A DNA stretch of 43,083 nucleotides, taken from NCBI GenBank assembly GCA_002293845.1, contig DBEA01000016.1, positions 30,836 through 73,918 on the forward strand, given 5' to 3'. Source of the DNA: Patescibacteria group bacterium UBA918. GTDB lineage: Bacteria; Patescibacteriota; Minisyncoccia; Phycocordibacterales; UBA918. Below the pieces are notes generated by a model, which was not told the origin of the DNA, did no database searches, and was given only the letters and a program-made list of their open reading frames with translations. Shown piece by piece: positions 2,491 through 31,760 of the stretch; the first letter of the stretch is position 1, and each line of letters begins with the position of its first letter. Made by a program: the position numbers and the translations under genes.

Positions 2491-2856
2491 ATGAACATAG
2501 ACAGATATCGCAAAGCTCTGGAGGAAGAGGCCTCTGAACTAAAGTCCGAACTTGAGGGTGTGGGAATACAGAACCCCGAAGTGAAAACCGACTGGGTAGA
2601 GCGGGCAGACGACCTAGACACGGTCAATGCCGACCCGAACGACGTGGCCGACCGCACCGAAGAGTACGATGAGCGCCGCGCCGTTTTGGCGACGCTCGAA
2701 GGTCGTTACAATGACGTCAAGCGCGCGCTCAACAAGATCGACGACGGCACTTATGGCGTCTGCGAGGTCTCCGGCGAACCGATCGAGGAGGATCGTCTCG
2801 ATGCCAATCCGGCCGCCCGCACCTGTAAACAGCATATGGACCGACAAGCGGCATAA
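2491..2856 (+). CDS. DksA/TraR-family protein (non-Cys4 variant)
   Basis: 121 aa with an N-terminal coiled-coil and a C-terminal 'YGVCEVSGEPIEEDRLDANPAARTCKQH'. This matches the TraR/DksA finger region but has only two Cys. Confidence 0.7.
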   Translation: MNIDRYRKALEEEASELKSELEGVGIQNPEVKTDWVERADDLDTVNADPNDVADRTEEYDERRAVLATLEGRYNDVKRALNKIDDGTYGVCEVSGEPIEEDRLDANPAARTCKQHMDRQAA

Positions 2857-2893
2857 GACAACTCTCTGGGTAATCCTACGCCATCACCACATC

Positions 2894-4411
2894 ATGTCTA
2901 TCGCTCGCACATTCACAGCACAACCTGGCGTATCTCGAGGAGACATGATCACCATCGAAGCAGACCTCTCTCGAGGTCTGTATTCGTTCGCGGTCGTCGG
3001 ACTTCCGGGAAAAGCCGTCGAGGAAGCTAAAGATCGGGTGAGTGCCGCCATAAAAAATTCCGGCTTTAAATCGCCTAAGAGCGATAACAGCAAGATCGTC
3101 ATCTCCTTAGCACCGGCGGACCTAAAGAAAGACGGGCCGTTATTCGACCTACCGATCGCCGTCGCCTACTTACTTGCCGCCGGTGCCATAAAAGGCGACG
3201 TCGAGAAGACATTGTTGATCGGTGAATTGTCACTGGACGGTACGTTACGCGAAGTGCGAGGTGTTTTGAGCGCCGTCGCGGCCGGGAAGCAAGCGGGCTT
3301 TACTGAAGTCATCGTGCCCGAAGGGAACGCCGCCGAAGCGGCGCTGATCGACGATATCATCGTACGCGGCGCCGCCTCGCTTAAGGACGTCGTCGATCAT
3401 TTGGACCACGCACGCGACACTCATCGCACCTTACCGGTAATTCCTGAAACTCGGTTGTCGGATTCTTGGGCCGAGACGCATGTGCGTTTAGAAGACATTA
3501 AGGGTCAAGAGAGCGCCAAGCGGGGCCTGCTCATCGCCGCCGCCGGCCTGCATAACCTGATCATGGCCGGGCCGCCGGGCACCGGCAAAACCATGTTAGC
3601 GCGCGCCTTCCAGGGTTTATTGCCGCCACTCTCTAAAGAAGAAGCTTTGGAAGTGATGGCTATTCATTCGCTGGTGGGTCCTTTGTCCGACCGGGTCTCT
3701 TCGTTACCTCCGTTTCGCACCCCGCACCACACTGCCAGCCACACTAGTTTGGTAGGCGGTGGGGCAAACCCTCGCCCGGGCGAAGTGACACTATCGCATC
3801 ACGGCGTGCTTTTCATGGACGAGTTTCCCGAGTTCGACCGGCGCTCGCTCGATGCCCTGCGACAGCCGCTAGAAGATCGCTACGTCACCATCTCTAGAGT
3901 GAAAGGAAGCGAGAAGTTTCCCGCCGACTTCGTGCTCCTAGCCGCTCTGAATCCTTATCGCGGAGTCGAAGACGGTTCGACCGACTATGCCGCGGCGATG
4001 ATGGACACTTACAAGAACAAGATATCGGGACCGATCCTCGACCGCATCGATCTATGGCTCAACGTGCCACATGTGGATTACGAAACATTGACCACGAAGA
4101 CGGCCGACAACGACGAAACCAAAAGGGCCCGGGAACGAGTACTCCGAGCGCGAGAAAGACAACGAGCGCGGTTAGAGAACAAAAAAGCCGCGGTTAATTC
4201 TCGAATGTCGAGTCGTGAACTGGAAGAGCTGGTGCCCTTATCACCGGAAGTGAAAGATATATTACGCCAGTCGTCCACTAAGTTGAATCTTTCGCCACGC
4301 TCGTTGCATCGACTGATCAAAGTCGCCCGCACTATCGCCGACCTAGAGGATACCGACGACCTGGCGTCGGCACATATATATGAAGCTCTGCAGTATAGGG
4401 TGAAGTTTTGA
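2894..4411 (+). CDS. comM: YifB/ComM-family Mg-chelatase-like AAA+ ATPase
   Basis: The ORF-track frame is open from 2627, but homology starts at ATG 2894 (MSIARTF...), just after the dksA stop. Walker A is GPPGTGKTM, Walker B is LFMDEFPEF, and the N-terminal domain is Lon-like. Confidence 0.9.
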   Translation: MSIARTFTAQPGVSRGDMITIEADLSRGLYSFAVVGLPGKAVEEAKDRVSAAIKNSGFKSPKSDNSKIVISLAPADLKKDGPLFDLPIAVAYLLAAGAIKGDVEKTLLIGELSLDGTLREVRGVLSAVAAGKQAGFTEVIVPEGNAAEAALIDDIIVRGAASLKDVVDHLDHARDTHRTLPVIPETRLSDSWAETHVRLEDIKGQESAKRGLLIAAAGLHNLIMAGPPGTGKTMLARAFQGLLPPLSKEEALEVMAIHSLVGPLSDRVSSLPPFRTPHHTASHTSLVGGGANPRPGEVTLSHHGVLFMDEFPEFDRRSLDALRQPLEDRYVTISRVKGSEKFPADFVLLAALNPYRGVEDGSTDYAAAMMDTYKNKISGPILDRIDLWLNVPHVDYETLTTKTADNDETKRARERVLRARERQRARLENKKAAVNSRMSSRELEELVPLSPEVKDILRQSSTKLNLSPRSLHRLIKVARTIADLEDTDDLASAHIYEALQYRVKF

Positions 4412-4445
4412 GTTAGCTTAAAGCGAATAGCTTATAGGGAACAGG

Positions 4446-4474
4446 AAACGGCCGCCCCTTCGGGGCGGCCGTTT
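4446..4474. terminator. bidirectional intrinsic terminator between convergent comM and the M23 peptidase gene
   Basis: aaacggccgcccc-ttcg-ggggcggccgttt, a perfect GC-rich stem with A/T runs on both sides. Confidence 0.8.
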
Positions 4475-4631
4475 GACTATATATTAATGTATCAAAGCTA
4501 GCGCGAAAATGGATACTAGAAATCTCGAATCCTTTCTAGAATGAAATGCAAGGCGCGCCAGGAAAATAATACGAGCCGCATATGGACATACGGTGAGAAT
4601 TATTTTACCGCAGCGCAATGCCGCAGTTCGC

Positions 4632-5687
4632 CTAGAAAGGGTTCGAGGCGCCGCGGACTTCGAAGTGGAGATGAGACCCTGTCGACTTACCGGTATTGCC
4701 GACCCCACCAATCGACTCGCCAGCGTCCACTTTTGAACCTACGCCGACGCCGACACTGGACATGTGCGCATAGAGAGTCTGCACGCCATTGGCGTGTTTG
4801 ATGACGACGTAGTTGCCGTAACCACCGTTCCAACCACTCGATTTAGCGACAATGACCTCGCCCGAGGCAGCGGCCCTGATCGAAGTTCCGACCGCCGCGG
4901 CCAAGTCGACGGCGTTATAGCCATGGATCCCTTGCGTGCGCACAGCGCCCGGAACCGGATTGACGAAAGATCCGCCACCAGTACCCTTGCTCGCTGTGCG
5001 GGTAGGGGACGAAGACTTGGTCGACGATTTTTGCGGTGTAGCTTGATGCATGACCCCGCCTGGCACCACCACAGTATCGCCGACAGAGATGTCGCTGGCC
5101 GAAGCGAGACGATTATAGGAAAGGATGTCACTCACCATGCCTTCGACTTGTTCGCTGGTCTCGGCGCCGTACTTCTTAGCGATCGAAGCTAAGGTTTCCT
5201 TCTCCTTAACCACGTGCCTGACGCCGGTTATCGGCAAGATCACTAGCGTATCTCCAGGTTGGACCGACTTAGGATCATCGATGTCGTTGGCCCACAAAAT
5301 GGTATTGACGGACACTCCGTACATCTCGGCGATATGTGACAGTGTCTCGCATCGCTCGGGGGTGCAAGGCCTGACCACGTGGACGCTGATCTCGCCACCA
5401 GACTTGTCCGTACCTGAGCTCTCGAGGTCGAAGGGGCCACTCGAAGCTAAGGTGCCCTCGTCGACTATGATGTCACCGCCGCCTTGGTTGGCTTTCAGGT
5501 CAGGACCGGTCGAGGCCGACAATAGCTTTATATCTCCGGCCGCGCGCTTGCCGGCCGACTTCTCATATACAAAAGTGCCTCCCGAAAAAATGCCGCCGAC
5601 CGAACTAAACACTCCGGCGTGCACCGATAACGGAATGATCACCATCAAGAAAACGAGTGCCCCGCGCCCGATCTTGCCTGCAGGCAA
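4632..5687 (-). CDS. secreted LysM-domain M23 (LytM-type) metallopeptidase
   Basis: 351 aa with a TTG start and a signal-like N-terminus. Two LysM-like segments (TLSHIAEMYGVSVNTILWAN, TLASIAKKYG) precede a C-terminal M23 core ending 'NTGKSTGSHLHFEVR'. Confidence 0.88.
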   Translation of the reverse strand: MPAGKIGRGALVFLMVIIPLSVHAGVFSSVGGIFSGGTFVYEKSAGKRAAGDIKLLSASTGPDLKANQGGGDIIVDEGTLASSGPFDLESSGTDKSGGEISVHVVRPCTPERCETLSHIAEMYGVSVNTILWANDIDDPKSVQPGDTLVILPITGVRHVVKEKETLASIAKKYGAETSEQVEGMVSDILSYNRLASASDISVGDTVVVPGGVMHQATPQKSSTKSSSPTRTASKGTGGGSFVNPVPGAVRTQGIHGYNAVDLAAAVGTSIRAAASGEVIVAKSSGWNGGYGNYVVIKHANGVQTLYAHMSSVGVGVGSKVDAGESIGGVGNTGKSTGSHLHFEVRGASNPF

Positions 5688-6071
5688 ATAGGGGACTCGT
5701 CTGGCTATGGCCTGAAAAGGTGTCGGTTTACCATCACCACCTTCAGTTTCTGTCTTACTGCTTGTTATATGTTCTTAGTTAAGGTCTCGCCGCCAGGCAA
5801 CCGCTACGGTATCTCAAACAAAAAGAGCGTCTAACGCTCGGAGCGAAACCCGGCCGAGGGCCGGGTGCATACATGATACTAGAGAGGTAGGTAGAGACAA
5901 TTGACTAAAGGTGAGTTTTCCACTGATGCGAAAAACGGCGTTTCCGAGCTTGTTTATCTGGCTTTTTTAGCTATTGACAAACTCGGATGATGTTACATGC
6001 TTTTGAAGCCGCTCCGTGGCGGTCGATTCGGCTTAGGAATATTCTCTCCCTCAACTATAATAGACGCTCGC

Positions 6072-9819: not shown

Positions 9820-11355
9820 ATGAGATTTAAAGTCACCATTACGACCTTGTTGATGACACTGACCTTTTCCGGGTCGCTCCTGTTAAGCGCGCCCTCAAAG
9901 GCCGAAGCACAGCTAGGCGGACTTCTCGGAGGAATAGCTGGTCTACTCGGTGGCGGGGAACCAGTCCGTATCGTCAGCGATGTTTCGGAAACTACTATCG
10001 CTAACACACTAAAAACTGCCCTGATTGAGTTATCAAACGCCTTTATCGGCGGCGAAATATCGTCGATCAACCTCAAGGAAACCGTCCTCGACCCGATAGC
10101 TTGGAACATGGCCAAACAGCTCCAACAACAACTCACAGGAAATCTTTTAAAGTGGCTGGGGGGCCAGCTACCGGGACAAAATGGTCAAGCAGCTTTCATC
10201 CAAAATTACGGCAAGTACTACGCCCAACTGTCGGACGCGGTAGCGGGCGAATTCATCTTTGGAGATCAAGTCAGTGGTTTATGCTCGCCGGAGGAGGACC
10301 ACCAGATCAAAGTACAAGTGTACGAATCTTTCGTCCAACAACGTAAGGAGGAAGAAGGAGCGATCTTTCAATGCTCTGATGAAAAAAACACCGGGCCAGA
10401 GAGTAGCGACCTAGACCAGATGTTCTTCGGTATCATGAGTTGTAGCGACGCCAATTGCGCTGGTTTCAAGGCTGAATATAAGCTATCCGTCAAACAACTA
10501 AACGCCTTTGCGAACGAGAAGCAAGTGCTCGATTATTCACGCGGCATGAGGACCCAGAAGATCTGCCAAACCGTCGCGGGTAGCGGTGGGACCGGCACCA
10601 GCACGGAGTGTGGCCTGGTCAGTCCGGCCTTTCTTTCAGCCGATACCACTTCCTTTATGTTGGCTCAGATGCCCGGGTTGCAACTCCTCGAAATGGACGA
10701 GTTCAACGAAATCGTATCGAACCTGATGTCGAACCTGACCAATCAAGCGCTTACGGGTCTTACTGGTGTCTTAGGACTGTCCGGCAATCCGACCTACAGT
10801 CGCAATGTCTTCGGTGAGGGAGGCAACCTGTCCTATGTCGACGCTCTTATTGCCGACGATATAACCAGTTACCAAACAGCGACCGGTAACCCTATAAGGG
10901 AAGCTTTGAACGTGGAAAAAGAATACGAAGCAATGCAGAAGGAAATAGCTGCTGAGCTCAAGGTAATCGAAGACAAATTAACGGCCGACACTGCCGAGTT
11001 TGCCGGCTGTTTCGATCTCGAACTGACTCCTGAACTCGAAGAGGCCAAAGCCAACAACGCCACCGGTCTCGCTATCGCTTCCACCTCTATCGCCATCCTG
11101 ACGACACTCGATGCGCAATACGCCAGCTCGACCTCTGCCAGCGCCAAAGGCGCGGTCATGAGTACTTTCATCAGCTACAAGAACCAGGGGCTATTCCGTA
11201 CCGACTACGACAATCAACAGTTTAAGGTAACCTATCTCGACTACACCTTCGCGGAAATGACCGACAAATTCAGGTATGATATAGCGGTAGAAAGACAATC
11301 ATGCGGCGGCGAGTTCGATTACGAGGGAGTCTTGAATCCGCCCGACGACGCCTAG
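9820..11355 (+). CDS. hypothetical secreted Cys-rich protein (T4SS-like operon)
   Basis: 511 aa. Signal peptide ending 'SAPSKAEAQ', about 10 Cys, coiled-coil-like segment. Starts 1 nt after the upstream stop. Confidence 0.6.
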   Translation: MRFKVTITTLLMTLTFSGSLLLSAPSKAEAQLGGLLGGIAGLLGGGEPVRIVSDVSETTIANTLKTALIELSNAFIGGEISSINLKETVLDPIAWNMAKQLQQQLTGNLLKWLGGQLPGQNGQAAFIQNYGKYYAQLSDAVAGEFIFGDQVSGLCSPEEDHQIKVQVYESFVQQRKEEEGAIFQCSDEKNTGPESSDLDQMFFGIMSCSDANCAGFKAEYKLSVKQLNAFANEKQVLDYSRGMRTQKICQTVAGSGGTGTSTECGLVSPAFLSADTTSFMLAQMPGLQLLEMDEFNEIVSNLMSNLTNQALTGLTGVLGLSGNPTYSRNVFGEGGNLSYVDALIADDITSYQTATGNPIREALNVEKEYEAMQKEIAAELKVIEDKLTADTAEFAGCFDLELTPELEEAKANNATGLAIASTSIAILTTLDAQYASSTSASAKGAVMSTFISYKNQGLFRTDYDNQQFKVTYLDYTFAEMTDKFRYDIAVERQSCGGEFDYEGVLNPPDDA

Positions 11356-11375
11356 TGCCAGCGGGGGTAAAAATC

Positions 11376-13544
11376 ATGGGAGTTTTAAATAGAAAAACGA
11401 TAACGACAGTGCTCATCGTCATGCTCAGCGCGGTGATGTTTTTCTTTTGGACCAACACACCGGCTAGAGCACAGGACGGCAGTGTAGCCGAACAAATGCA
11501 ATCCCAGGTGCAGCAGGCGACCCAGAAAACCCAAACGGCTCCGACATCTCCGACCCCTGATGACGACTACGGTATCGGCACCGTCGCGGAAAGTCTCAAG
11601 TTAGACGGAATAAACTACTACCTGTTCGTTATCATTGCCGGCATCGGTTCATTGATAGCTTGGCTCGGCGGTATTCTTTTCGACCTTTCTCTAAGCGCCT
11701 TCACGGCCAATATGGCCCCGCTAGTTGAAGAATTGGGATTACAGATAGCTATAGGTGAGATGTGGACCATCGTCAGAGACATCTTCAATCTCCTGTTCAT
11801 CTTCGGTCTTATCTACGCCGGATTCAGGATCATCCTCGACGCCAACGATTCGTCTTCAAAAAAGACCATCGGCACCATAGTGATAGCGGCACTCATCATA
11901 AACTTCAGTTTATATTTCACCCAAATAGTGATCGACTTCACCAACGTGGCGGCGTATCAGATACACCAGATGATAGTCGGAAACAATTCGACCCAAAAGC
12001 ATTTCGGATCTATACCCGTGCCCAGTACCTCCAGCCAGTTCTATCTTCTCTCGGGTCTAAACGAACAAAGGAGTGGCGGCGGCGATTCCATCAAAAACGA
12101 GATCGGGGCTGTAGCGGGAGGCAAACAGCCTTCGGACTCAAGCAGTCCGATCGGGGCCATCGCGCTCGGATTCATATTTTTGATATTCTATTCCTTACTC
12201 GGTTTCGTGTTCATTGCGGCCGCCGCGATGCTTATCACCCGCTTTTTCGCTCTCATTTTCTGGATGATCTTTTCGCCGATATTGCTTTTAGGACTGGTTT
12301 TGCCAAAGATGCAGTCACAGAGCGACAAGTGGCTGAAGCAATTTTTCAACCAGGCATTAGTAGGGCCGGTATTGGTCTTTATGATCTACCTTTCACTTCG
12401 CGCTCTTCAGGGATTGGGGGGCAGCGGTCGCGAACCTGGTCTCATGGCCACCATCATCTATTTGATGGTGGTTATAGCCTTTTTAGCGGCTTCGCTTAAG
12501 GTAGCTAAATCCTTCGGCGCCTATGGCGCCGACCGGGCAATGAGTATCGGAAACGGAATAAGGGGAAGCGTACAGGGGTTTGTGGGCAGAAATACTTTGG
12601 GACGAATGGGAGATGCTTATAATCGCCGCCTGGAAGAGCGCGGGGTATCCGATAAAAGTTGGCGACGTGGTATTGCTTCTTCCTTAGCTGGCTCTAAATA
12701 CGGCAGTTCATACTCTAGAGAGACAGCAAGGAGTTCCGATGAAAAAGCAGCACAAAAGCGAGCCCGCTATGACCAAATACATGGGGCCCCAATTAGAGTT
12801 CCCGGTACAAGTAAGGCTATACCTTTCACACGCGGAAAAGGAAAAGACCGGCAAGGAATCGTGCAAAATATTGCCGCTGGCGGCATAGACATGGAAAAGG
12901 CAATTTCTGGTGCTTCTAATGAGCAAATCCTGGAGTTACTTGGTCAATACAAGCCCGGTACCGACGAGTATACCAAGTTGGTTGCAAACATGAGTGCCAG
13001 TCAATACGAAGCGGTTATGAAAGCCAAGCCCGAAGAGATGGACGACGGGGCTAAAGCCAAACTAAGCGCACAAAGAAAGACTGCGGTTGAAACATATCTA
13101 AACAAAAACGGAGGCTCTTTGGTTCAAAACATCAAGAACGCTAGCGATGCTCAACTGAAAGTCATCGGCGCAGAAGATATCGCTAAACATGCAGCTGACC
13201 TTAAACAGTCACAGTTTGACGACATTATGAAGAGTAAAGAGTACACTGAGACTGAGAAAAGCAATATTCGTACGGCGAGAGAGACCGAGTTGGATAATAG
13301 GTTCCAATTGAACCCTGCCACATTCTTTACAGGACGCAAAGACAAGGACGTTGCAAAACTCCCTAAGAAAATATTGGTCGACAGCAAAGCTGCACCTTAT
13401 ATCACCGGTGCGGCCTTAAAACAAATCCTTCATGAAGATACACTAGAACCTGCTGACCGCGTTACCGTCAGAGCCAATGTCACAGCTACGGGTAACGCGG
13501 CGGCTAAAAAATGGCTTATTACTCCCGAGGGGCGGCTTTTCTAA
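11376..13544 (+). CDS. VirB6/TrbL-like polytopic membrane protein with a long hydrophilic C-terminal extension
   Basis: Start at ATG 11376 (MGVLNRK...). At least 6 hydrophobic helices between about aa 100 and 400, then a ~330-aa Lys/Glu-rich tail. The TrbL/VirB6 assignment rests on topology and gene context. Confidence 0.6.
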   Translation: MGVLNRKTITTVLIVMLSAVMFFFWTNTPARAQDGSVAEQMQSQVQQATQKTQTAPTSPTPDDDYGIGTVAESLKLDGINYYLFVIIAGIGSLIAWLGGILFDLSLSAFTANMAPLVEELGLQIAIGEMWTIVRDIFNLLFIFGLIYAGFRIILDANDSSSKKTIGTIVIAALIINFSLYFTQIVIDFTNVAAYQIHQMIVGNNSTQKHFGSIPVPSTSSQFYLLSGLNEQRSGGGDSIKNEIGAVAGGKQPSDSSSPIGAIALGFIFLIFYSLLGFVFIAAAAMLITRFFALIFWMIFSPILLLGLVLPKMQSQSDKWLKQFFNQALVGPVLVFMIYLSLRALQGLGGSGREPGLMATIIYLMVVIAFLAASLKVAKSFGAYGADRAMSIGNGIRGSVQGFVGRNTLGRMGDAYNRRLEERGVSDKSWRRGIASSLAGSKYGSSYSRETARSSDEKAAQKRARYDQIHGAPIRVPGTSKAIPFTRGKGKDRQGIVQNIAAGGIDMEKAISGASNEQILELLGQYKPGTDEYTKLVANMSASQYEAVMKAKPEEMDDGAKAKLSAQRKTAVETYLNKNGGSLVQNIKNASDAQLKVIGAEDIAKHAADLKQSQFDDIMKSKEYTETEKSNIRTARETELDNRFQLNPATFFTGRKDKDVAKLPKKILVDSKAAPYITGAALKQILHEDTLEPADRVTVRANVTATGNAAAKKWLITPEGRLF

Positions 13545-13555
13545 GATGGCAAAAT

Positions 13556-14116
13556 ATGGATAGTGTATTAGATAAAAAAAGCAGACTGGAGCTATTGAAA
13601 AAGGCACCGATTGAAGTACAAGAAATGTACGGCAATGAGGATTTAGGTGACACTCTCTTATCTTTGGCCAATGTGTTAAATATGAACGCGGATTCAGCAT
13701 ACGATAACTTGGCCTTGACCGTGGGTGACGTCATTTTACGTCTGTATAAAAAAAGTTTATTGCCACAGGTATTAAAAGACCGATTAGGCCTCAACGAGAA
13801 CCAAATAACTATTGTTGTGGATGCTCTGTCTCCTTTCTTGGAAAGAATACCGGAATTACCATCTACGCCGGAACCCGTGCCAGCGATTCCGCCAACATCA
13901 ACAACTGCACCTAACATTGAAGATGCGGCGAATAAGATGGTGCCGCCAAATGCATTGAATCTAGCTCCCCTAGCCGCGGTCAAACCCATGCGCACTTACT
14001 CCGACGACGTCAACATGAGCCGCGCTCACAGCTACGGCGCCTTCAGACCACAAGCAGAAGACGATACGGACGAGCCGACACACAGCAGTAGCCAGGACGA
14101 CTTGATGAGAAAATAG
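13556..14116 (+). CDS. hypothetical soluble protein (T4SS-like operon)
   Basis: ATG at 13556 (MDSVLDKK...), 12 nt after the upstream stop. No TM helix, P/T-rich centre. No family recognised. Confidence 0.5.
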   Translation: MDSVLDKKSRLELLKKAPIEVQEMYGNEDLGDTLLSLANVLNMNADSAYDNLALTVGDVILRLYKKSLLPQVLKDRLGLNENQITIVVDALSPFLERIPELPSTPEPVPAIPPTSTTAPNIEDAANKMVPPNALNLAPLAAVKPMRTYSDDVNMSRAHSYGAFRPQAEDDTDEPTHSSSQDDLMRK

Positions 14117-14518
14117 AAATTAGAGAGTAGAAAGTAGTAGTAATGAGCCAAACTAAGTCATTTAAAGACCTGATCGTATGGCAGAAAGCCAAGGCTTTAG
14201 CCATAATGATCTACAAAATTACCGATGACTTTCCAAAATCAGAGCAATTCGGATTATCGAGCCAAATGCGACGATCAGCGGTTTCAATATCATCCAATAT
14301 CGCTGAAGGATACAGGCGTTTTCACGCCAAAGAAAAACGTCAATTCACCAGTACAGCATTCGGGTCCGGTGCCGAACTTGAAAGCCAGCTAGAGATAGCT
14401 AAAGAGATTTACAGGGAATGTTCCTATCAGGAGGCGGAGGATTTGCTTGCTGATATAATGAAGATACTGAACAGTTTCTTATCGAAGTCATGAGTCCACT
14501 TCTACTCTCTACTTTCTA
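14114..14518 (+). repeat. inverted-repeat-bounded cassette 1 (arms 14114-14132 and 14500-14518)
   Basis: Hand pairing gives 18 Watson-Crick pairs in 19 positions. The 5' arm is C-free and includes the upstream TAG stop. The 3' arm is G-free. Confidence 0.75.
14143..14493 (+). CDS. four-helix-bundle protein (23S rRNA intervening-sequence protein / Avd-like family)
   Basis: 116 aa with 'FKDLIVWQKAKALA...', 'SQMRRSAVSISSNIAEGY' and 'GSGAELESQLEIAKE', the hallmark pattern of this family. Confidence 0.9.
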   Translation: MSQTKSFKDLIVWQKAKALAIMIYKITDDFPKSEQFGLSSQMRRSAVSISSNIAEGYRRFHAKEKRQFTSTAFGSGAELESQLEIAKEIYRECSYQEAEDLLADIMKILNSFLSKS

Positions 14519-14539
14519 ACTTACTACTTACTAAATCAT

Positions 14540-14950
14540 ATGAGATTCGAAGTTCCGCAATTCATCGAGATCGAGGATAAGATATTCGGTCCTTTGACCT
14601 GGAAGCAATTCGTGTACGTCGCCGGGGGAGCGGGGGTAGCGGCCGTGCTTTTCTTTTTCACTCCGTTCATAGTGTTTTTGATACTAGGTCTGCCGGTCGC
14701 CGCCTTTACCTTCATCCTGTCTTTCTATCCGGTCAATAATCGACCCTTTTCCATATTCTTAGAGGCCGCGGTCCGATATTTCAAGGGCACGAAATTATAC
14801 CTATGGCGCAAACGGGGAAGTGGCGTATATAGCCAGCAACAAGCCGAAGAAGCGACCGCTCCGGTATACATGCCGCCCAACGACACTGGCCATATCGCCT
14901 CGCTCTCGCGCCGATTGGAAATGAAAGCTATCCAGAAAGAAAACATCTAG
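14540..14950 (+). CDS. PrgI-family (VirB3-like) membrane protein
   Basis: 136 aa. 'VPQFIEIEDKIFGPLTWKQFVYVAGGAG' followed by two TM helices, the typical PrgI pattern. Confidence 0.85.
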   Translation: MRFEVPQFIEIEDKIFGPLTWKQFVYVAGGAGVAAVLFFFTPFIVFLILGLPVAAFTFILSFYPVNNRPFSIFLEAAVRYFKGTKLYLWRKRGSGVYSQQQAEEATAPVYMPPNDTGHIASLSRRLEMKAIQKENI

Positions 14951-14980
14951 TCGCCTGAGCAAGGTGTTATCATACTGGTG

Positions 14981-15619
14981 ATGCCGGCTCAGAAAAACAC
15001 CACGCAGACATTCGTACCGTTGCGTGACATCAAAGACAACGTCGTGATCCTCAAAAATGGCCAGATGAACATGGTCATGTTGGCTTCGTCGATCAACTTC
15101 GCGCTCAAGTCGATCGACGAGCAAGAAGCGATCCTGAGACAATTCCAATCTTTCCTCAACACCATCGATTTTTCGATCCAATTTTACGTACAATCGCGAC
15201 GCCTCAACATCAGGCCATATCTGGAACTACTGCAAAGCCGCGAAGAGAAACAGGACAACGATCTGATGAAGATCCAACTCCGCGAATATATGCAGTTCGT
15301 AAAAACTTTCACAGCCGAGGTCGATGTCATGAGCAAGAGCTTTTTCATAGTCGTACCTTATACACCGACCGCAGCGAACATTCAGAACAGCTTGGAGAGT
15401 TTCAAGAACGTCATAGGTAGCAAAAAAGAAGTGTACTTCGACGACAAGAATTTCACGGAGCACAAACTCCAGCTGGAGCAAAGGGTATCCTTGGTCGAGC
15501 AGGGTCTTTCGAGCATCGGCGTACGAACTATACTTCTCCAAAATGAGGAGTTGGTGGAGTTGTATTATCATATATTCAATCCGGGCGAGGCCGGCAACGT
15601 GGCGCCGAGTAGTAAGTAG
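14981..15619 (+). CDS. VirB4 N-terminal-domain-like protein (no ATPase domain)
   Basis: ATG at 14981 (GTG at 14978 is also possible). 'FVPLRDIKDNVVILKNGQMNMVMLASSINFALKSIDEQEAILRQFQSFLNTIDFSIQFYVQS' resembles the N-terminal domain of monoderm VirB4/TrsE-type ATPases, judged from memory. Confidence 0.5.
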   Translation: MPAQKNTTQTFVPLRDIKDNVVILKNGQMNMVMLASSINFALKSIDEQEAILRQFQSFLNTIDFSIQFYVQSRRLNIRPYLELLQSREEKQDNDLMKIQLREYMQFVKTFTAEVDVMSKSFFIVVPYTPTAANIQNSLESFKNVIGSKKEVYFDDKNFTEHKLQLEQRVSLVEQGLSSIGVRTILLQNEELVELYYHIFNPGEAGNVAPSSK

Positions 15620-16011
15620 TTTTTAGTTGTCAGTTTTTAGTGAATAGTGAATAAAATCAACTCTTTTAAAGACCTAACCGTGTGGCAAAAGTCATTTGAT
15701 TTGGTCCTCAATGTCTACAAATTAACCGACGGTCTACCAAAGATCGAGCTGTACGGCCTATCTGACCAAATGAAACGATCGGCAACTTCTATCCCCTCTA
15801 ACATCGCTGAGGGTTCAAAACGCGGGTCAAGAAAAGATTTCAAGCAATTCGTCAGAGTTGCCTACGGGTCATCTGCGGAATTGGAAACTCAATTGCTGTT
15901 AGCCAAAGAGTTGTATAATGTCGATATATCGAATCTGATATCAAACCTTAGCGATATACAAAAAATGTTATCGGGGCTTATCAAAAAACTAAGCACTGAC
16001 AACTAAAAACT
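15618..16011 (+). repeat. inverted-repeat-bounded cassette 2 (arms 15618-15641 and 15988-16011)
   Basis: Of 24 positions, 22 are Watson-Crick pairs, 1 is G-U and 1 is a mismatch. The core is a perfect 17-mer, agtttttagttgtcagt/actgacaactaaaaact. The 3' arm overlaps the last HB codons and the stop. Confidence 0.8.
15647..16006 (+). CDS. four-helix-bundle protein (23S rRNA IVS protein / Avd-like family), second copy
   Basis: 119 aa with a GTG start. 'FKDLTVWQKSFDL', 'DQMKRSATSIPSNIAEGS', 'GSSAELETQLLLAKE'. Roughly half of the residues are identical to the first copy by eye. Confidence 0.9.
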   Translation: MNKINSFKDLTVWQKSFDLVLNVYKLTDGLPKIELYGLSDQMKRSATSIPSNIAEGSKRGSRKDFKQFVRVAYGSSAELETQLLLAKELYNVDISNLISNLSDIQKMLSGLIKKLSTDN

Positions 16012-16016
16012 TCTCT

Positions 16017-17816
16017 ATGGGCATTTTCGATCTTTTAAAAAAAGGTGGTACCAAGCAAGAGGGTATTCTCGATACCGAAAGCGCTTTGATGACGCTCGAG
16101 GACGTAGTGGCTCCCTCGGCCGTCCGAGTCGACCCGCGTAGCATAAACATCAGCGGCATGAACGCCCGCGTGTTCTTTGCCGTGTCATATCCGCGCTATC
16201 TCAACGACGGCTGGCTCGAACCGATACTCGACCTCGAGAAAGAACTCGACGTCTCTATAGTGATACACCCGATCGACACCGCCGAAACTTTAAAGAAATT
16301 TCAAAAGAAAGTAGCCGAGGTCCAGAGTCAGATCAACGCCAATGAGGAGAAGGGGATGGTGCGCGATCCACAACTCGAGGCCGCTTACCGCAACCTCGAA
16401 GACCTACGTGACAAGCTCCAACAAGCGGAGGAGAAGCTCTTCGACGTCGGTCTCTACATCGCGGTCTATGGCGCCGACGAGGAATCCCTCAACAAGACCG
16501 AAGCGGAAGTGAAAGGCATATTGGACTCGCGTCTGGTATATCTAAAGCCGGCTCTGTTCCAGCAGGAACAGGGTCTCAGGAGCGTTCTACCGACCATGAC
16601 CGACGAGCTTATGGTGCACAGCAAGTTCAACTCGAGCCCGCTATCGAGTTTCTTCCCGTTCACTTCTTTCGACCTAACCTCGGACACCGGCATTTTATAC
16701 GGCATTAACCGCCATAACTCCAGTCTGGTCCTATTCGACCGTTTTTCGCTTACCAACTACAACTCGGTCACTTTCGCCACTTCGGGTGCCGGCAAATCCT
16801 ACACCACTAAGTTGGAGATCTTGCGTTCCTTGATGTTCGGTACCGAAGTCATCGTCATCGACCCGGAAAGGGAGTACGAATACTTGGCCGAAGCCACTGG
16901 CGGACGATTCTTCAACATTTCGCTCTCGAGCGCTCACCACATTAACCCTTTCGATCTGCCCGATCCGGAAGAGAATGAGGACCCTGAAGACCTACTACGT
17001 TCCCACATCATCGAACTGATCGGTCTGATGCGATTGATGCTCGGGGGATTGTCGCCCGAGGAAGAGACGATAATCGACCAAGCTCTACACGAAGTATACG
17101 CGCTCAAAGACATCAACGGCGACGCTTCCTGGAAGGGTATGGAATCGCCCCTTTTGACGGACTTCGAGATGGTACTGGCCGGCATGGATGGCAGCGACTC
17201 CTTGATCGCCAGGCTCCAAAAATACACCTCCGGCACTTGGTCGGGCTTCATGAACCAGCCCACCAACGTCGACATAAATCAAAAGTTCGTCGTTTTCTCG
17301 CTTCGCGACATGGAGGACGAACTTAAGACCGTGGCGATGTATATCATCATGAACCATATCTGGAACATGGTGCGCCGTCGACTACAAAAGCGCCTCATGG
17401 TCATCGACGAGGCCTGGTGGATGATGAAGAGCGAGGACACCGCCTCTTTCTTGTTCTCGCTGGCTAAACGGGGTCGTAAATATTACCTCGGCATCGCCAC
17501 CATCACTCAAGACGTGGATGACTTCCTTCGTTCTCCTTATGGCGTGCCGATGATCACCAACTCATCCCTGCAATTTCTGATGAAGCAGTCGCCGACATCG
17601 ATCGATCTCGTGCAACGCACTTTCAACCTGACGGACGAGGAGAAACTTCTACTTCTCGAGAGTAATGTGGGGGAGGGCATATTCTTCGTCGGTCTCAAGC
17701 ACGTGGCCATCAAGGTTATCGCCAGCTACACGGAGGATCAGATCATCACTTCCGATCCGCATCAGCTCCTACAGATCAAACAAGCGCGCGCCGAACTAAA
17801 GGCGGCGCAGGGGTAG
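16017..17816 (+). CDS. virB4: VirB4-family type IV secretion ATPase
   Basis: 599 aa. Walker A 'TSGAGKSYT', Walker B 'LMVIDEAWWM', 'ATITQD'. The N-terminal 'YPRYLNDGWLEPIL' region is typical of VirB4. Confidence 0.88.
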   Translation: MGIFDLLKKGGTKQEGILDTESALMTLEDVVAPSAVRVDPRSINISGMNARVFFAVSYPRYLNDGWLEPILDLEKELDVSIVIHPIDTAETLKKFQKKVAEVQSQINANEEKGMVRDPQLEAAYRNLEDLRDKLQQAEEKLFDVGLYIAVYGADEESLNKTEAEVKGILDSRLVYLKPALFQQEQGLRSVLPTMTDELMVHSKFNSSPLSSFFPFTSFDLTSDTGILYGINRHNSSLVLFDRFSLTNYNSVTFATSGAGKSYTTKLEILRSLMFGTEVIVIDPEREYEYLAEATGGRFFNISLSSAHHINPFDLPDPEENEDPEDLLRSHIIELIGLMRLMLGGLSPEEETIIDQALHEVYALKDINGDASWKGMESPLLTDFEMVLAGMDGSDSLIARLQKYTSGTWSGFMNQPTNVDINQKFVVFSLRDMEDELKTVAMYIIMNHIWNMVRRRLQKRLMVIDEAWWMMKSEDTASFLFSLAKRGRKYYLGIATITQDVDDFLRSPYGVPMITNSSLQFLMKQSPTSIDLVQRTFNLTDEEKLLLLESNVGEGIFFVGLKHVAIKVIASYTEDQIITSDPHQLLQIKQARAELKAAQG

Positions 17817-22427: not shown

Positions 22428-23807
22428 ATGTCTCAAACCTCTCCATCGATCATCAATAACATCCTACAGACGGAACAGGTGGACACCAAAAAATTATGGG
22501 ACGATGCTTTGGTGGCCATAGAGCTAGGAATAACCCCCGCGAACTTCAAGACATGGTTCCGCGACACTCGTATCGTGTCGCTAGAGGACGGAACTGTGAC
22601 TTTGGGAGTGCCTAGTGTTTTCGTGCGCGACTGGCTTCAAGACAAATTTCAATCGATGATACTGCGTGTACTGCGAGAAAACACTCCCCACGTACGTAAC
22701 ATCGAATACGCTGTAGTCGCCAGAACCGAGAAAAAGCAAGAGAACCGCACCCAAAGCGTCAACGCCGCCCTACCACTCGAAGAATACTACATAAACAAGA
22801 GCGACAACCTGAATCCCCGATATACGTTCGACACGTTCGTGATCGGCCCTTTCAATGCCTTGGCCCACGCCGCGGCCAAGACAGTGAGTGAAAAACCCGG
22901 CATTACTTACAATCCACTGTTCATCTATGGAAAGACCGGCCACGGCAAGACGCACCTGATTCAGGCGGTGGGAAACCAACTCAAAAAAACCGGGAAAAAA
23001 GTGTTTTATGCGACCGCTGAACGCTTCACTGTCGACTACTTCAACTCTTTGCAGAACGGCACCGCCAATAGTTTTAAGGACAAATATCGTCAGTACGACG
23101 TGTTAGTGATGGACGATGTACAATTCCTCAATAGTAAAGAAAAAACCCAAGAGGAGTTATTCCACCTGTTCAACACCCTACACGACAACAATAAACAAAT
23201 AGTGTTTTCGAGTGATATCCATCCCGCGCTCCTATCCGGTATGGAGGAACGTTTACGTTCACGTTTCGCGGCCGGCATGATAGTGGACATACCGGCACCA
23301 GACCAAGAGTCTAGAGCGGCCATCCTGAGGGCTAAAGCCGCCCAAAACCACCTCACTTTGAGCGAGGATGTTATTCAACATTTGGCGGAGTCGATCAATG
23401 GCAACATTAGGGAATTGGAAGGTGCTTTAAACTCGATAATGTGCCAATCACAACTACTAGGCAGGATACTGCCGCTCGAGGAGGTGAAGGATATAATCAA
23501 AAACAGCGCCCGACCAAGAAGAAGTATGGCCATAGACGATGTGGTGGAAAAGGTAGCCAACTTTTTCAACATCGAACCTGCCTCTATTTATGAAAAGACG
23601 AGACGCAAAGAGGTGGTGAAGCCGAGGCAGCTCATAATGTATATCTTAAGGGAAGACTTTGCTGTGTCTTATCCGACGATCGGACAAAAACTAGGCGGCC
23701 GCGACCACACCACCGTTATCCATTCGTGTGAAAAGATCAAGAACGAATTAAAAAATGGCGGGGAACTGGAAGAGGAGGTGACCCAAATACGCGCCCTATT
23801 AAAGTGA
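22428..23807 (+). CDS. dnaA: chromosomal replication initiator DnaA
   Basis: 459 aa. Walker A 'GKTGHGKTHL', Walker B 'VLVMDDVQFL', and a C-terminal DNA-binding region 'GGRDHTTVIHSCEKI'. Confidence 0.95.
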   Translation: MSQTSPSIINNILQTEQVDTKKLWDDALVAIELGITPANFKTWFRDTRIVSLEDGTVTLGVPSVFVRDWLQDKFQSMILRVLRENTPHVRNIEYAVVARTEKKQENRTQSVNAALPLEEYYINKSDNLNPRYTFDTFVIGPFNALAHAAAKTVSEKPGITYNPLFIYGKTGHGKTHLIQAVGNQLKKTGKKVFYATAERFTVDYFNSLQNGTANSFKDKYRQYDVLVMDDVQFLNSKEKTQEELFHLFNTLHDNNKQIVFSSDIHPALLSGMEERLRSRFAAGMIVDIPAPDQESRAAILRAKAAQNHLTLSEDVIQHLAESINGNIRELEGALNSIMCQSQLLGRILPLEEVKDIIKNSARPRRSMAIDDVVEKVANFFNIEPASIYEKTRRKEVVKPRQLIMYILREDFAVSYPTIGQKLGGRDHTTVIHSCEKIKNELKNGGELEEEVTQIRALLK

Positions 23808-23822
23808 GCATTGGCGCCCTTA

Positions 23823-23852
23823 AGCAAAACCGGTCCATGGACCGGTTTTGCT
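23823..23852 (+). terminator. perfect palindromic hairpin after dnaA
   Basis: agcaaaaccggtcc/ggaccggttttgct is a perfect palindrome. It starts 16 nt after the dnaA stop and is followed by T-rich sequence. Confidence 0.7.
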
Positions 23853-24132
23853 TTATGTTGATAATTATGTTGATAAACCACCAACAATACCTGCTGTGGT
23901 TGTGACCTTCATATGGATAAATCGGTCCTAGAACGGGTTTTGTCTTGGTATTTACGCCATGAGTTCGGACATACCCATATTTATCCAGGGTCAACGATAG
24001 TGATCGTTGGTTATTTTGTCCATATTTATGAGCATATTATTCAGTTCTCAACATTTCCACACCCCTAATAATAAGGGTGTAAAAAAGATCGTTGGGCGAC
24101 AATCCACAGGGTGGTGGGTTATAATTCCAGCT
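23853..24132. promoter_or_regulatory. candidate oriC (DnaA-box cluster plus AT-rich stretch) in the dnaA-dnaN spacer
   Basis: Tandem tgttgataa (reverse complement TTATCAACA) at 23856-23864 and 23868-23876. tatggataa (reverse complement TTATCCATA) at 23912-23920. TTATCCAGG at 23981-23989 and cAATCCACA at 24100-24108. AT-rich run at about 24020-24055. Confidence 0.5.
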
Positions 24133-30454: not shown

Positions 30455-31441
30455 TTATGTCGTTTGCAGGTGGTCATGAGCAGTGGCGCTTGCGACGCGC
30501 CCGCGCGGAGTGCGCTCGAGTAAGCCGAGACGTATAAGATAAGGCTCGATGACATCTTCGATGGTCGAAGGTTCCTCGCCGGTCGCGGCCGCGATGGTGC
30601 CTAGACCCACCGGCCCGCCGCCGAACTTGTGAATGATGGCCTCTAATACCGCTCGGTCCGGTTTACCCAAACCTAGTTCATCGACCTCCAAGAGAGCGAA
30701 CGTACGCTCGACGATGTCGTCGGTTATGTCGGTTCCGTCCAGTTGGGCCAAGTCGCGACAGCGTTTCAGAAGATAATTGGCGGTACGCGGCGTGGCGCGA
30801 CATCGTTTAGCGATACTCTCCAGCACTTTACTATCGGCGTCCATACCGAGAAGGGAAGCGGAACGCCTGAGGATGTCAGCGATCTCGTTCTCGGAGTAGA
30901 AGTCGAGACGGAAAGTGCCCCCCGAGAATCGGGAACGCAACGGGGAAGAGAGCAACGAAACGCGCGTGGTGGCCGCGACCAGTGTGAACGGCGGCAGATC
31001 GAGTTGGACGGTGCGGGCGGAGGGGCCTTTACCGATGATGATGTCGAGTACACCGGATTCCATGGCTGGGTACAACACTTCCTCGATCGACTTGGAGAGA
31101 CGATGAATCTCATCGATGAATAAGACGTCTCCGGGCGAAAGGTTGGTCAAAATGGCGGCCAAGTCTCCTACGCGTTCTATGGCCGGACCGGAAGTGACCC
31201 GCATATTTGTGCCCAGAGTCTTCGCGATCAAGTGCGCCAGAGTGGTCTTGCCCAAACCTGGCGGACCATATAGAAGCACGTGCTCGGCGGCGTGTCCCCG
31301 TTCGCGCGCGGCGGTCAAAAGAATGCGCAAGTTTTCCTTGGTTTTCTCTTGGCCGATGTAGTCTTCCCAATTTTGCGGTCGCAAAGTTTGGTCCAGATTG
31401 CCAGAGGCTTCTTTGGTGAAGGTGCCGGAATCGTTCGTCAT
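30455..31441 (-). CDS. ruvB: Holliday junction branch migration helicase RuvB
   Basis: 328 aa. Walker A 'GPPGLGKTT', Walker B 'VLFIDEIH', C-terminal winged-helix region. Confidence 0.93.
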
Positions 31442-31527: not shown

Positions 31528-31560
31528 ATACCTGTTCTTCATAAAAGTGAAAAAACAAAA

Positions 31561-31597
31561 CACCGCGGCCTTAGGCCTTCGGTGGCTTGTTTTTTCT
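31561..31597. terminator. bidirectional terminator-like hairpin inside the pilB-ruvB spacer
   Basis: caccg-c-ggcc-tta-ggcc-tt-cggtg, flanked by an A-rich run upstream and gcttgttttttctttc downstream. Confidence 0.55.
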
Positions 31598-31742
31598 TTC
31601 GAGAGGATAGCTCTCTAAGCAATTGGGTGGTGTGGCGAGGACTTCCTGGTCCTTACCCTTGAGTGAGATCGCTGGGAATTCCCTTAGCGCATCACTCACT
31701 TTCATATCTGGAAAGCTTGCTTAGAGAACTATATTCTCGAAA
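31597..31742. ncRNA. candidate structured small RNA of unknown family, strand unresolved
   Basis: Long-range inverted repeat 31599-31622/31717-31740 (21 Watson-Crick pairs, 1 G-U, 2 mismatches in 24 positions). It closes ~90 nt holding two hairpins: aggac/gtcct, and 31661-31697 containing the palindrome GGGAATTCCC. No credible ORF. Confidence 0.3.
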
Positions 31743-31760
31743 AATCACTTTTTGAACCTG

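Follow-up and report, generated by a model that had tools for sequence, protein, structure and literature searches.

Intervening sequences (IVSs) of bacterial 23S rRNA have been known since 1990, but where they come from, how they move and what the S23p/four-helix-bundle (HB) protein does are still open questions (PMC4990558). In Coxiella, for instance, the IVS is 428-444 nt long and closed by a 28-bp terminal stem, within which RNase III cuts, and it contains the S23p open reading frame (ORF) (PMC4990558). Non-intron insertions in rRNA genes of the candidate phyla radiation (CPR) carry 23S_rRNA_IVP or GIY-YIG genes as cargo (PMC11270868), and HB genes within cas operons were noted earlier, with no mention of their flanks (PMC3936711). 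Here we analyze a 43,083-nt stretch (positions 30,836 to 73,918 of contig DBEA01000016.1, assembly GCA_002293845.1; hereafter "the window", whose own coordinates we use) from Patescibacteria group bacterium UBA918, in which two HB genes lie within an operon resembling a type IV secretion system (T4SS), each bracketed by inverted arrays of heptamers. We read them, at a probability of about 0.6, as two copies of a promoterless mobile IVS-type gene cassette inserted in very short intercistronic spacers of this chromosomal operon. The host is a Paceibacteria (CPR) bacterium, the insertions are lineage-specific, and IVS-type elements are not confined to rRNA.

Correia elements, which are about 100-150 bp long, have conserved terminal inverted repeats and no ORF, and duplicate a TA target. 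These elements of Neisseria (nemis) are described as co-transcribed hairpins of the miniature inverted-repeat transposable element (MITE) type (PMC2649163), whose stem binds RNase III, is either cleaved or protected and alters the expression of neighbouring genes. The TAACTGA heptamer arrays of Beggiatoaceae, cyanobacteria and Bacteroidetes contain stop codons in three frames, overlap the ends of upstream ORFs and precede start codons without a ribosome-binding site (RBS), and a role as translational regulators has been proposed for them (PMC4679880). IVSs, HB proteins, RNase III-cleaved MITE hairpins and stop-rich heptamer arrays are thus each known separately; what appears to be new is their combination in a heptamer-armed IVS-type cassette resident in mRNA operons. 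A previous inspection of this DNA, made from its letters and ORFs and referred to below as the sequence-only reading, was not aware of any earlier description. This agrees with the literature that we searched, in which we found no paper that describes HB genes flanked by such arrays; a search that combined the heptamers of the short tandemly repeated repetitive (STRR) sequences with the S23 and HB names gave, among the 30 top-ranked matches, no paper with both.

Cassette 1 lies between a gene for a 201-aa product and the PrgI/VirB3-like gene (PrgI) of the operon. Its cargo, HB1, is a 116-aa protein encoded on the forward strand at 14143-14493, which the sequence-only reading had recognized as an HB ORF between T4SS-like genes and had proposed to compare with PF05635 by a profile search. 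That search matches over the full length with an E-value of 2.7e-33 and 114.8 bits (cutoff 33.8), and HB1 also matches TIGR02436 (110.6 bits, cutoff 24) and the structure of XCC0516 (PDB 2GSC, E 1e-16). The 5' arm (14103-14142, forward strand) is a heptamer array, TAGAAAT TAGAGAG TAGAAAG TAGTAG, in which Tandem Repeats Finder (TRF) detects a period of 7 at 14108-14137. The 3' arm (14497-14538, forward strand) is the complementary array, of ACTTACT type (TRF period 7 at 14498-14533), and adjoins the PrgI start codon; the two arms are predicted to form a stem. Also borne out was the description of the core arms: 14114-14132 (TAGAAATTAGAGAGTAGAA) and 14500-14518 (TTCTACTCTCTACTTTCTA) are complementary at 18 of 19 positions, the former free of C and containing the TAG stop of the upstream gene, the latter free of G and ending 21 nt before the PrgI ATG at 14540. 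The missing letters have a simpler cause than that account implied, as the arms consist of TAG-containing heptamers and their complement. The array's first TAG serves as the upstream stop (14114-14116), and the TAGs at 14114, 14121 and 14128 fall in three different frames. In the predicted RNA fold, both the minimum free energy (MFE) structure and the centroid are closed by a stem of about 33 bp that pairs 14103-14141 with 14498-14538 (z = -4.3); because the arms are heptamer arrays, the MFE register is displaced by 7 nt from the one paired by hand.

A second cassette of the same build, which the sequence-only reading had overlooked, lies 1.5 kb downstream, between the ORFs for the N- and C-terminal parts of VirB4 (VirB4-N and VirB4-C). 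It encodes HB2 (15647-16006, forward strand), a 119-aa HB protein that is 49% identical to HB1 and scores 123 bits against PF05635 (E 8e-36) and 124.4 bits against TIGR02436. Its 5' arm (15604-15653, forward strand) reads TAGTTTT TAGTTGT CAGTTTT TAGTGAA TAGTGAA, with TRF arrays at 15617-15641 and 15638-15653, and its 3' arm (15985-16022, forward strand) overlaps the last codons of HB2. Within these arms, 15615-15641 and 15988-16014 form the longest inverted repeat of the window (27 nt, 89% complementary). The TAG stop of VirB4-N (15617-15619) is inside the 5' arm. In both cassettes, the first TAG of the array that is in frame with the upstream ORF terminates it. The ATG of VirB4-C follows 2 nt past the 3' arm of the repeat. 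Here too the MFE and centroid folds are closed by a stem, of about 32-33 bp (z = -3.1), and in the MFE fold the 3' arm extends into the VirB4-C start codon.

These arms stand out from the rest of the window. A scan for inverted repeats with 19-nt arms, at most one mismatch and a loop of 300-450 nt returned only two pairs, one around HB1 and one around HB2, and none in 30 dinucleotide shuffles of the window; TRF reported no other period-7 arrays in the 43 kb. The arm sequences of the two cassettes are unrelated. Predicted duplex energies are -27.8 and -36.4 kcal/mol for the cognate arms of cassettes 1 and 2, versus -10.7 and -21.4 kcal/mol for cross-cassette pairs. As control ORFs also reach -35 kcal/mol, RNAduplex energy was dropped as a means of recognizing cassettes, and ungapped Watson-Crick scoring of the arms was used instead.

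To see what these junctions look like elsewhere, we scanned GTDB genomes with the VirB4 ATPase and obtained 80 syntenic loci from Patescibacteria (Paceibacteria). At both junctions the HB gene is missing from the two closest relatives by VirB4 identity (L001, 91%; L002, 90%), as it is from most of the 80 loci. The empty VirB4-N|VirB4-C junction reads TAGTTTTATG in L001 and TAGAATGTTATG in L002. At the junction upstream of PrgI, stop and start overlap as ATGA in L002 and are separated in L001 by a 47-nt spacer with no arm-like repeat; the homologues of the 201-aa ORF in both relatives end at the same residue position as in the window, without a cassette. Comparison with these empty sites reveals no target-site duplication at the two window junctions. 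Cassette GC content is 0.39-0.41, versus 0.46-0.53 in the flanks. The ortholog comparison supports the view of the sequence-only reading that the HB gene belongs to an inserted IVS-like cassette and is not a resident gene, since the two closest relatives and most others are empty exactly at these junctions. Its further suggestion, that the stem served as the insertion target, is not supported: the empty sites have no stem, and the genes there overlap by stop and start or lie at most 47 nt apart with no arm-like repeat in the spacer. VirB4 consists of two ORFs in all 80 relatives, with or without a cassette, and the spacer between them is 4-9 nt; the division is thus ancestral, and cassette 2 splits no gene. 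For the same reason, and with no Rfam match, we rejected a group I or group II intron or an intein in VirB4 as an explanation of cassette 2.

Other HB carriers among the 80 loci are more distant and sporadic, and their cassettes lie at three junctions: upstream|PrgI (L037, L045, L058, L061, L068, L069, L079), PrgI|VirB4-N (L068, L069, L079) and VirB4-N|VirB4-C (L033, L038, L050, L061). The arms of these cassettes differ in sequence, yet within each cassette they are complementary. The same three junctions also harbour heptamer hairpins without an ORF (L030, L045, L053, L062, L042, L079).

Several loci deserve description in their own right. L045 has one ORF-less heptamer hairpin at two operon junctions (5054-5171 and 5818-5962) with a near-identical loop, ACAATGCAAACACAAGATACAATTCA.GGCATCCTC, and the mini-hairpin loops of L053, L062 and L042 have in common an AATAC..CATGC motif. 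In L030 (4150-6000), ORF-less (ATACGAA)n/(TTCGTAT)n hairpins occupy upstream|PrgI, PDDEXK_3|VirB4-N and VirB4-N|VirB4-C, and a PDDEXK_3/GxxExxY gene (4730-5137) sits in an element with the same type of arms. GIY-YIG genes (PF01541, E 1e-15 to 1e-17) are found between inverted repeats in L072 (4519-4779, minus strand), L011 (4350-4721, minus strand) and L053 (4281-4550); those of L072 and L011 are at upstream|PrgI, antisense to the operon, and that of L053 is downstream of VirB4-C. ORFs with no family match are enclosed in L056 (3254-3683; 117 aa, hydrophobic-looking, inside a 25/25 inverted repeat) and in L097 (4799-5251; 150 aa, within a long inverted repeat with TAGCTTT-type arms). In L071 (4632-5282), the PrgI|VirB4-N gap is taken up by two ORFs on the minus strand (100 aa and 64 aa), again with no family match, which could be a toxin-antitoxin-like insertion. 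L081 (2954-3379) carries, at upstream|PrgI and with (TAGTAAG)n arms, an HB gene 67% identical to HB1, although its host is distant (PrgI about 37% identical); as closer relatives are empty, this suggests repeated insertion at the junction or multiple losses. In many relatives (L003, L007, L018, L021, L026 and others), a GC-rich terminator-like hairpin stands just upstream of PrgI and is followed by a TGTATAAT box, which lies about 10 nt from the PrgI ATG. This arrangement suggests that a transcription unit starts at PrgI in those lineages and that its leader is very short; it is absent from the window and from L002.

The bracketed build is not peculiar to the window. Scanning metagenomes with an alignment of 7 HB sequences (an alignment of 15 was too diverse) yielded 80 loci, in which flanking arms with a score of at least 12 occur around 59% of HB genes, versus 2% of 193 size-matched control ORFs (p = 7e-22). 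In 45 of 76 cassettes, the 45 nt that lead up to the HB start contain stop codons in all three frames (shuffles: mean 19.7, maximum 29), with TAG as the dominant stop and 7 as the commonest periodicity in this interval. The upstream gene itself ends on TAG in 59% of cassettes versus a background of 29%, and the type of stop agrees with the type of array. Between the upstream stop and the HB start, the median gap is 41 nt, and where both flanks could be judged and were co-oriented ORFs, the HB gene was in sense in 33 cases and antisense in 2. HB clades have a common type of arm heptamer (e.g., TAGCTTN), while the flanking genes within clade G1 are unrelated in 64 of 66 pairs, and the sharing of arm 6-mers increases with HB identity (p = 2e-20). 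Since arm type goes with the HB clade even where the contexts are unrelated, the gene seems to travel together with its arms. None of the 80 metagenome loci is embedded in rRNA.

Cyanobacterial plasmids provide further examples, with an HB cassette of the same build between cmr2 and cmr3 in Picosynechococcus PCC 7003 (L163) and, in Nostoc edaphicum (L164), one lying antisense between nrdB and nrdA with 34-nt (TAGGGAG)n/(CTCCCTA)n arms. The connection to rRNA is made by plasmid AZO_p2 of Azospirillum lipoferum 4B (L182), where an HB ORF lies inside a 23S rRNA gene (Rfam LSU match at 2792-5990) between 36-nt arms (3945-3980 and 4378-4413) composed of heptamers (CAGAGGA CGGATGA ...), which close the element in the MFE fold. 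The likeness to 23S IVS geometry that the sequence-only reading had drawn thus extends to a true 23S IVS with both an HB gene and inverted heptamer arms.

How such an insertion might be tolerated can be outlined as follows. The cassette would be co-transcribed with the operon; we infer this because the promoter and terminator scan of the cassettes gave signals at chance level only and because the genes overlap by ATGA in L002. In the transcript, the two arrays would pair into a predicted 19-33 bp double-stranded RNA (dsRNA) stem in which the stop of the upstream gene faces the start of the downstream gene, restoring their proximity at the stem base. By analogy with rRNA IVSs, RNase III would cut the stem and so free the HB mRNA, and the cistrons on either side would come apart, each retaining its own start. 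The stop-rich arrays would serve as frame-independent translational insulators, and the insertion would then be nearly neutral for the host operon.

Some observations weigh against this account. About 40% of the metagenome HB genes have no clear ungapped inverted repeat, and the HB gene between cas6 and cas4 on Pseudanabaena galeata plasmid pPg_01 (L162, 2900-3480) is flanked by direct arrays, (GCTAAAA)x13 upstream and (GCCAAAA)x10 downstream, not inverted ones. RNase III cleavage of the operon copies is argued by analogy with work on rRNA IVSs (PMC4990558), and translating ribosomes may hold the stem open. Mismatches between arms show no bias of G.U over A.C (56 versus 61). Selection on the sense-strand RNA stem is accordingly not demonstrated, and the pairing could reflect a DNA-level or symmetric process, which leaves room for arrays that act like transposon ends. 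By eye, the arms of L045 and L079 differ by one compensatory change (C-G to T-A) and one disruptive change, and the cassettes on more than 20 contigs from many samples are identical and hence contain no informative substitutions; samples in which this organism occurs include JGI 3300005690, JGI 3300038816 and SRR5325116.

The wobble result would also fit an alternative in which the heptamer arrays are DNA-level transposon ends, that is, inverted multiple binding sites for HB or a trans factor that mediate excision and integration, with the RNA stem as a by-product. Transposon ends typically contain short sites repeated in inverted arrays, and an arm type inherited with the HB clade, together with MITE-like ORF-less hairpins at the same junctions (including the element present twice in L045), would suit this alternative. 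Whereas MITEs and DNA transposons usually have conserved terminal inverted repeats, the arms here are common only within HB clades. We nonetheless consider this alternative unlikely. The two window junctions, set against the empty sites, show no target-site duplication, and ORF family scans of the cassettes and their surroundings found no transposase or recombinase. The HB protein, a helical bundle of 116 aa, has no known catalytic fold, and in rRNA such a stem is demonstrably an RNA-level processing site (PMC4990558).

Less likely still, in our judgment, is that the arms act mainly as a translational relay or insulator without RNA cleavage, with the TAG array halting the upstream ribosome in any frame and the stem masking the HB and downstream starts until upstream translation opens it, so that the coupling of the empty junction is preserved. 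Three of the four empty junctions in the closest relatives indeed have a 4-9 nt spacer or an ATGA overlap (the fourth, upstream|PrgI in L001, has 47 nt), the upstream stop is in the 5' arm with the downstream ATG at or within the stem base, and the median distance of 41 nt from stop to HB start fits as well. By eye, no Shine-Dalgarno motif precedes the start of HB1 or HB2, and stop-rich heptamer arrays before RBS-less starts have been proposed to be translational regulators (PMC4679880). Such a relay leaves unexplained why inverted arrays also surround HB within 23S rRNA, which has no translated gene upstream of it. RNase III would in any case be expected to act on a near-perfect dsRNA of 19-33 bp. 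As for HB being simply a resident part of the T4SS-like operon or a regulator of it, with generic intergenic hairpins or chance repeats at its sides, the co-orientation and tight packing of the genes are what one would expect, but this explanation is already contradicted and we regard it as extremely improbable: the repeats are unique in the window and absent from all 30 shuffles, the closest relatives and most of the 80 syntenic loci lack HB, and HB genes with such arms also occur in unrelated operons (cas, nrd) and in rRNA.

The mobile IVS-type cassette, if correct, has several implications. The operon copies offer a comparative system for IVS movement and protein binding, in which insertions can be dated and which includes empty sites, derivatives without an ORF, other cargo genes and clade-specific heptamer arms. 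They also explain an annotation puzzle, namely "four helix bundle protein" genes wedged in cas and other operons (PMC3936711), offer a rationale for stop-rich heptamer arrays, and suggest a natural design for adding a gene to an operon in self-insulated form. A more far-reaching proposal, which we put forward tentatively and hold to be doubtful, is that rRNA IVSs, scattered HB genes (in cas, restriction and nrd operons) and many intergenic heptamer arrays form one widespread class of mobile hairpin cassette, built of inverted, clade-specific heptamer arrays. Its cargo would be optional (HB, GIY-YIG, PDDEXK_3), and it could enter any transcribed RNA, at an rRNA helix or a stop/start junction, neutralizing itself by its stem, an RNase III cut and all-frame stops. 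Spread would be driven by the pentameric HB protein, which would recognize the arrays of its own cassette. As HB is related to Avd, an accessory protein encoded by diversity-generating retroelements (DGRs), this spread might involve an RNA or cDNA intermediate.

The gene row around the cassettes, as judged from the ORF list and profile matches in the window, is co-directional, tightly packed and T4SS-like, with all genes on the forward strand. A TrbL/VirB6-like gene (11301-13544) is the first of the row leading into cassette 1, followed by the upstream gene of 201 aa (13511-14116), which has no family match. Downstream of cassette 1 come PrgI (14540-14950; PF12666, E 3e-10) and VirB4-N (14978-15619), a TraC-like/TrsD-like ORF that covers positions 11-168 of conju_CD1110; VirB4-C, the ATPase part (16017-17816; NF045971, 373.9 bits, positions 179-733), lies downstream of cassette 2. 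An Rfam search of the window found no rRNA and no match at either cassette. Elsewhere in the window, a perfect 16+16 nt palindrome within 23822-23876 directly follows dnaA (22428-23807), and after it are two copies of TTATGTTGATAA, which are DnaA box-like; the region probably comprises the terminator of dnaA and the surroundings of oriC, which places the T4SS-like cluster on the chromosome. We also observed a structured intergenic RNA of about 200 nt on the minus strand at 31548-31745 (MFE -93.4 kcal/mol, z = -10.2), with a closing stem (31597-31622 with 31717-31742), three inner hairpins and, at its end, a terminator hairpin followed by a U-run; it matched no Rfam family even at E <= 1.

Among known systems, integron gene cassettes were rejected as a class, with no formal attC model run, since here the ORF separates the two arms, which are about 370 nt from each other, versus an attC hairpin downstream; no integrase was found among the scanned ORFs. 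The DGR accessory protein Avd belongs to the same four-helix-bundle superfamily, but HB scores below the curated cutoffs of both Avd models (NF033474, 23.9 bits, E 4e-5, cutoff 80; PF22296, 30.3 bits, E 6e-7, cutoff 40), and we rejected this identification as well. No reverse transcriptase is present among the scanned ORFs and neighbours; template and variable repeats were not searched for.

The closest likeness is to the 23S IVSs that carry an S23p/PF05635 ORF in Leptospira, Coxiella burnetii and Azospirillum. As in those elements, a sense ORF sits in about 400-470 nt closed by a terminal stem of 19-36 bp that encloses the whole element, GC content is below that of the host, and the distribution is sporadic. 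Unlike them, the window elements lie between protein-coding ORFs of a polycistronic mRNA and not in an rRNA helix, and their TAG-rich arms, which contain stops in three frames, adjoin both a stop and a start codon. Excision by RNase III has been shown experimentally for the rRNA copies, whereas for the operon cassettes it is proposed by analogy. The cargo families of the CPR rRNA insertions match those of the T4SS-junction cassettes in relatives (HB and GIY-YIG, with PDDEXK_3 in addition at the latter), but those insertions were catalogued in 16S and 23S genes only, with no mention of inverted heptamer arrays (PMC11270868). Correia elements are likewise inverted-repeat elements inserted between genes; unlike them, the window cassettes carry a gene for a protein of 116 aa in the loop and have clade-specific heptamer arms. 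With the TAACTGA and STRR arrays, finally, the cassettes have in common tandem units of period 7 that place stops in all three frames, and the HB cassettes of Nostoc bear (TAGGGAG)n arrays like the STRR heptamers of cyanobacteria. Those arrays have been described as direct repeats linked to no gene, whereas the arrays of the cassettes are inverted, enclose an HB gene and are inherited together with it.

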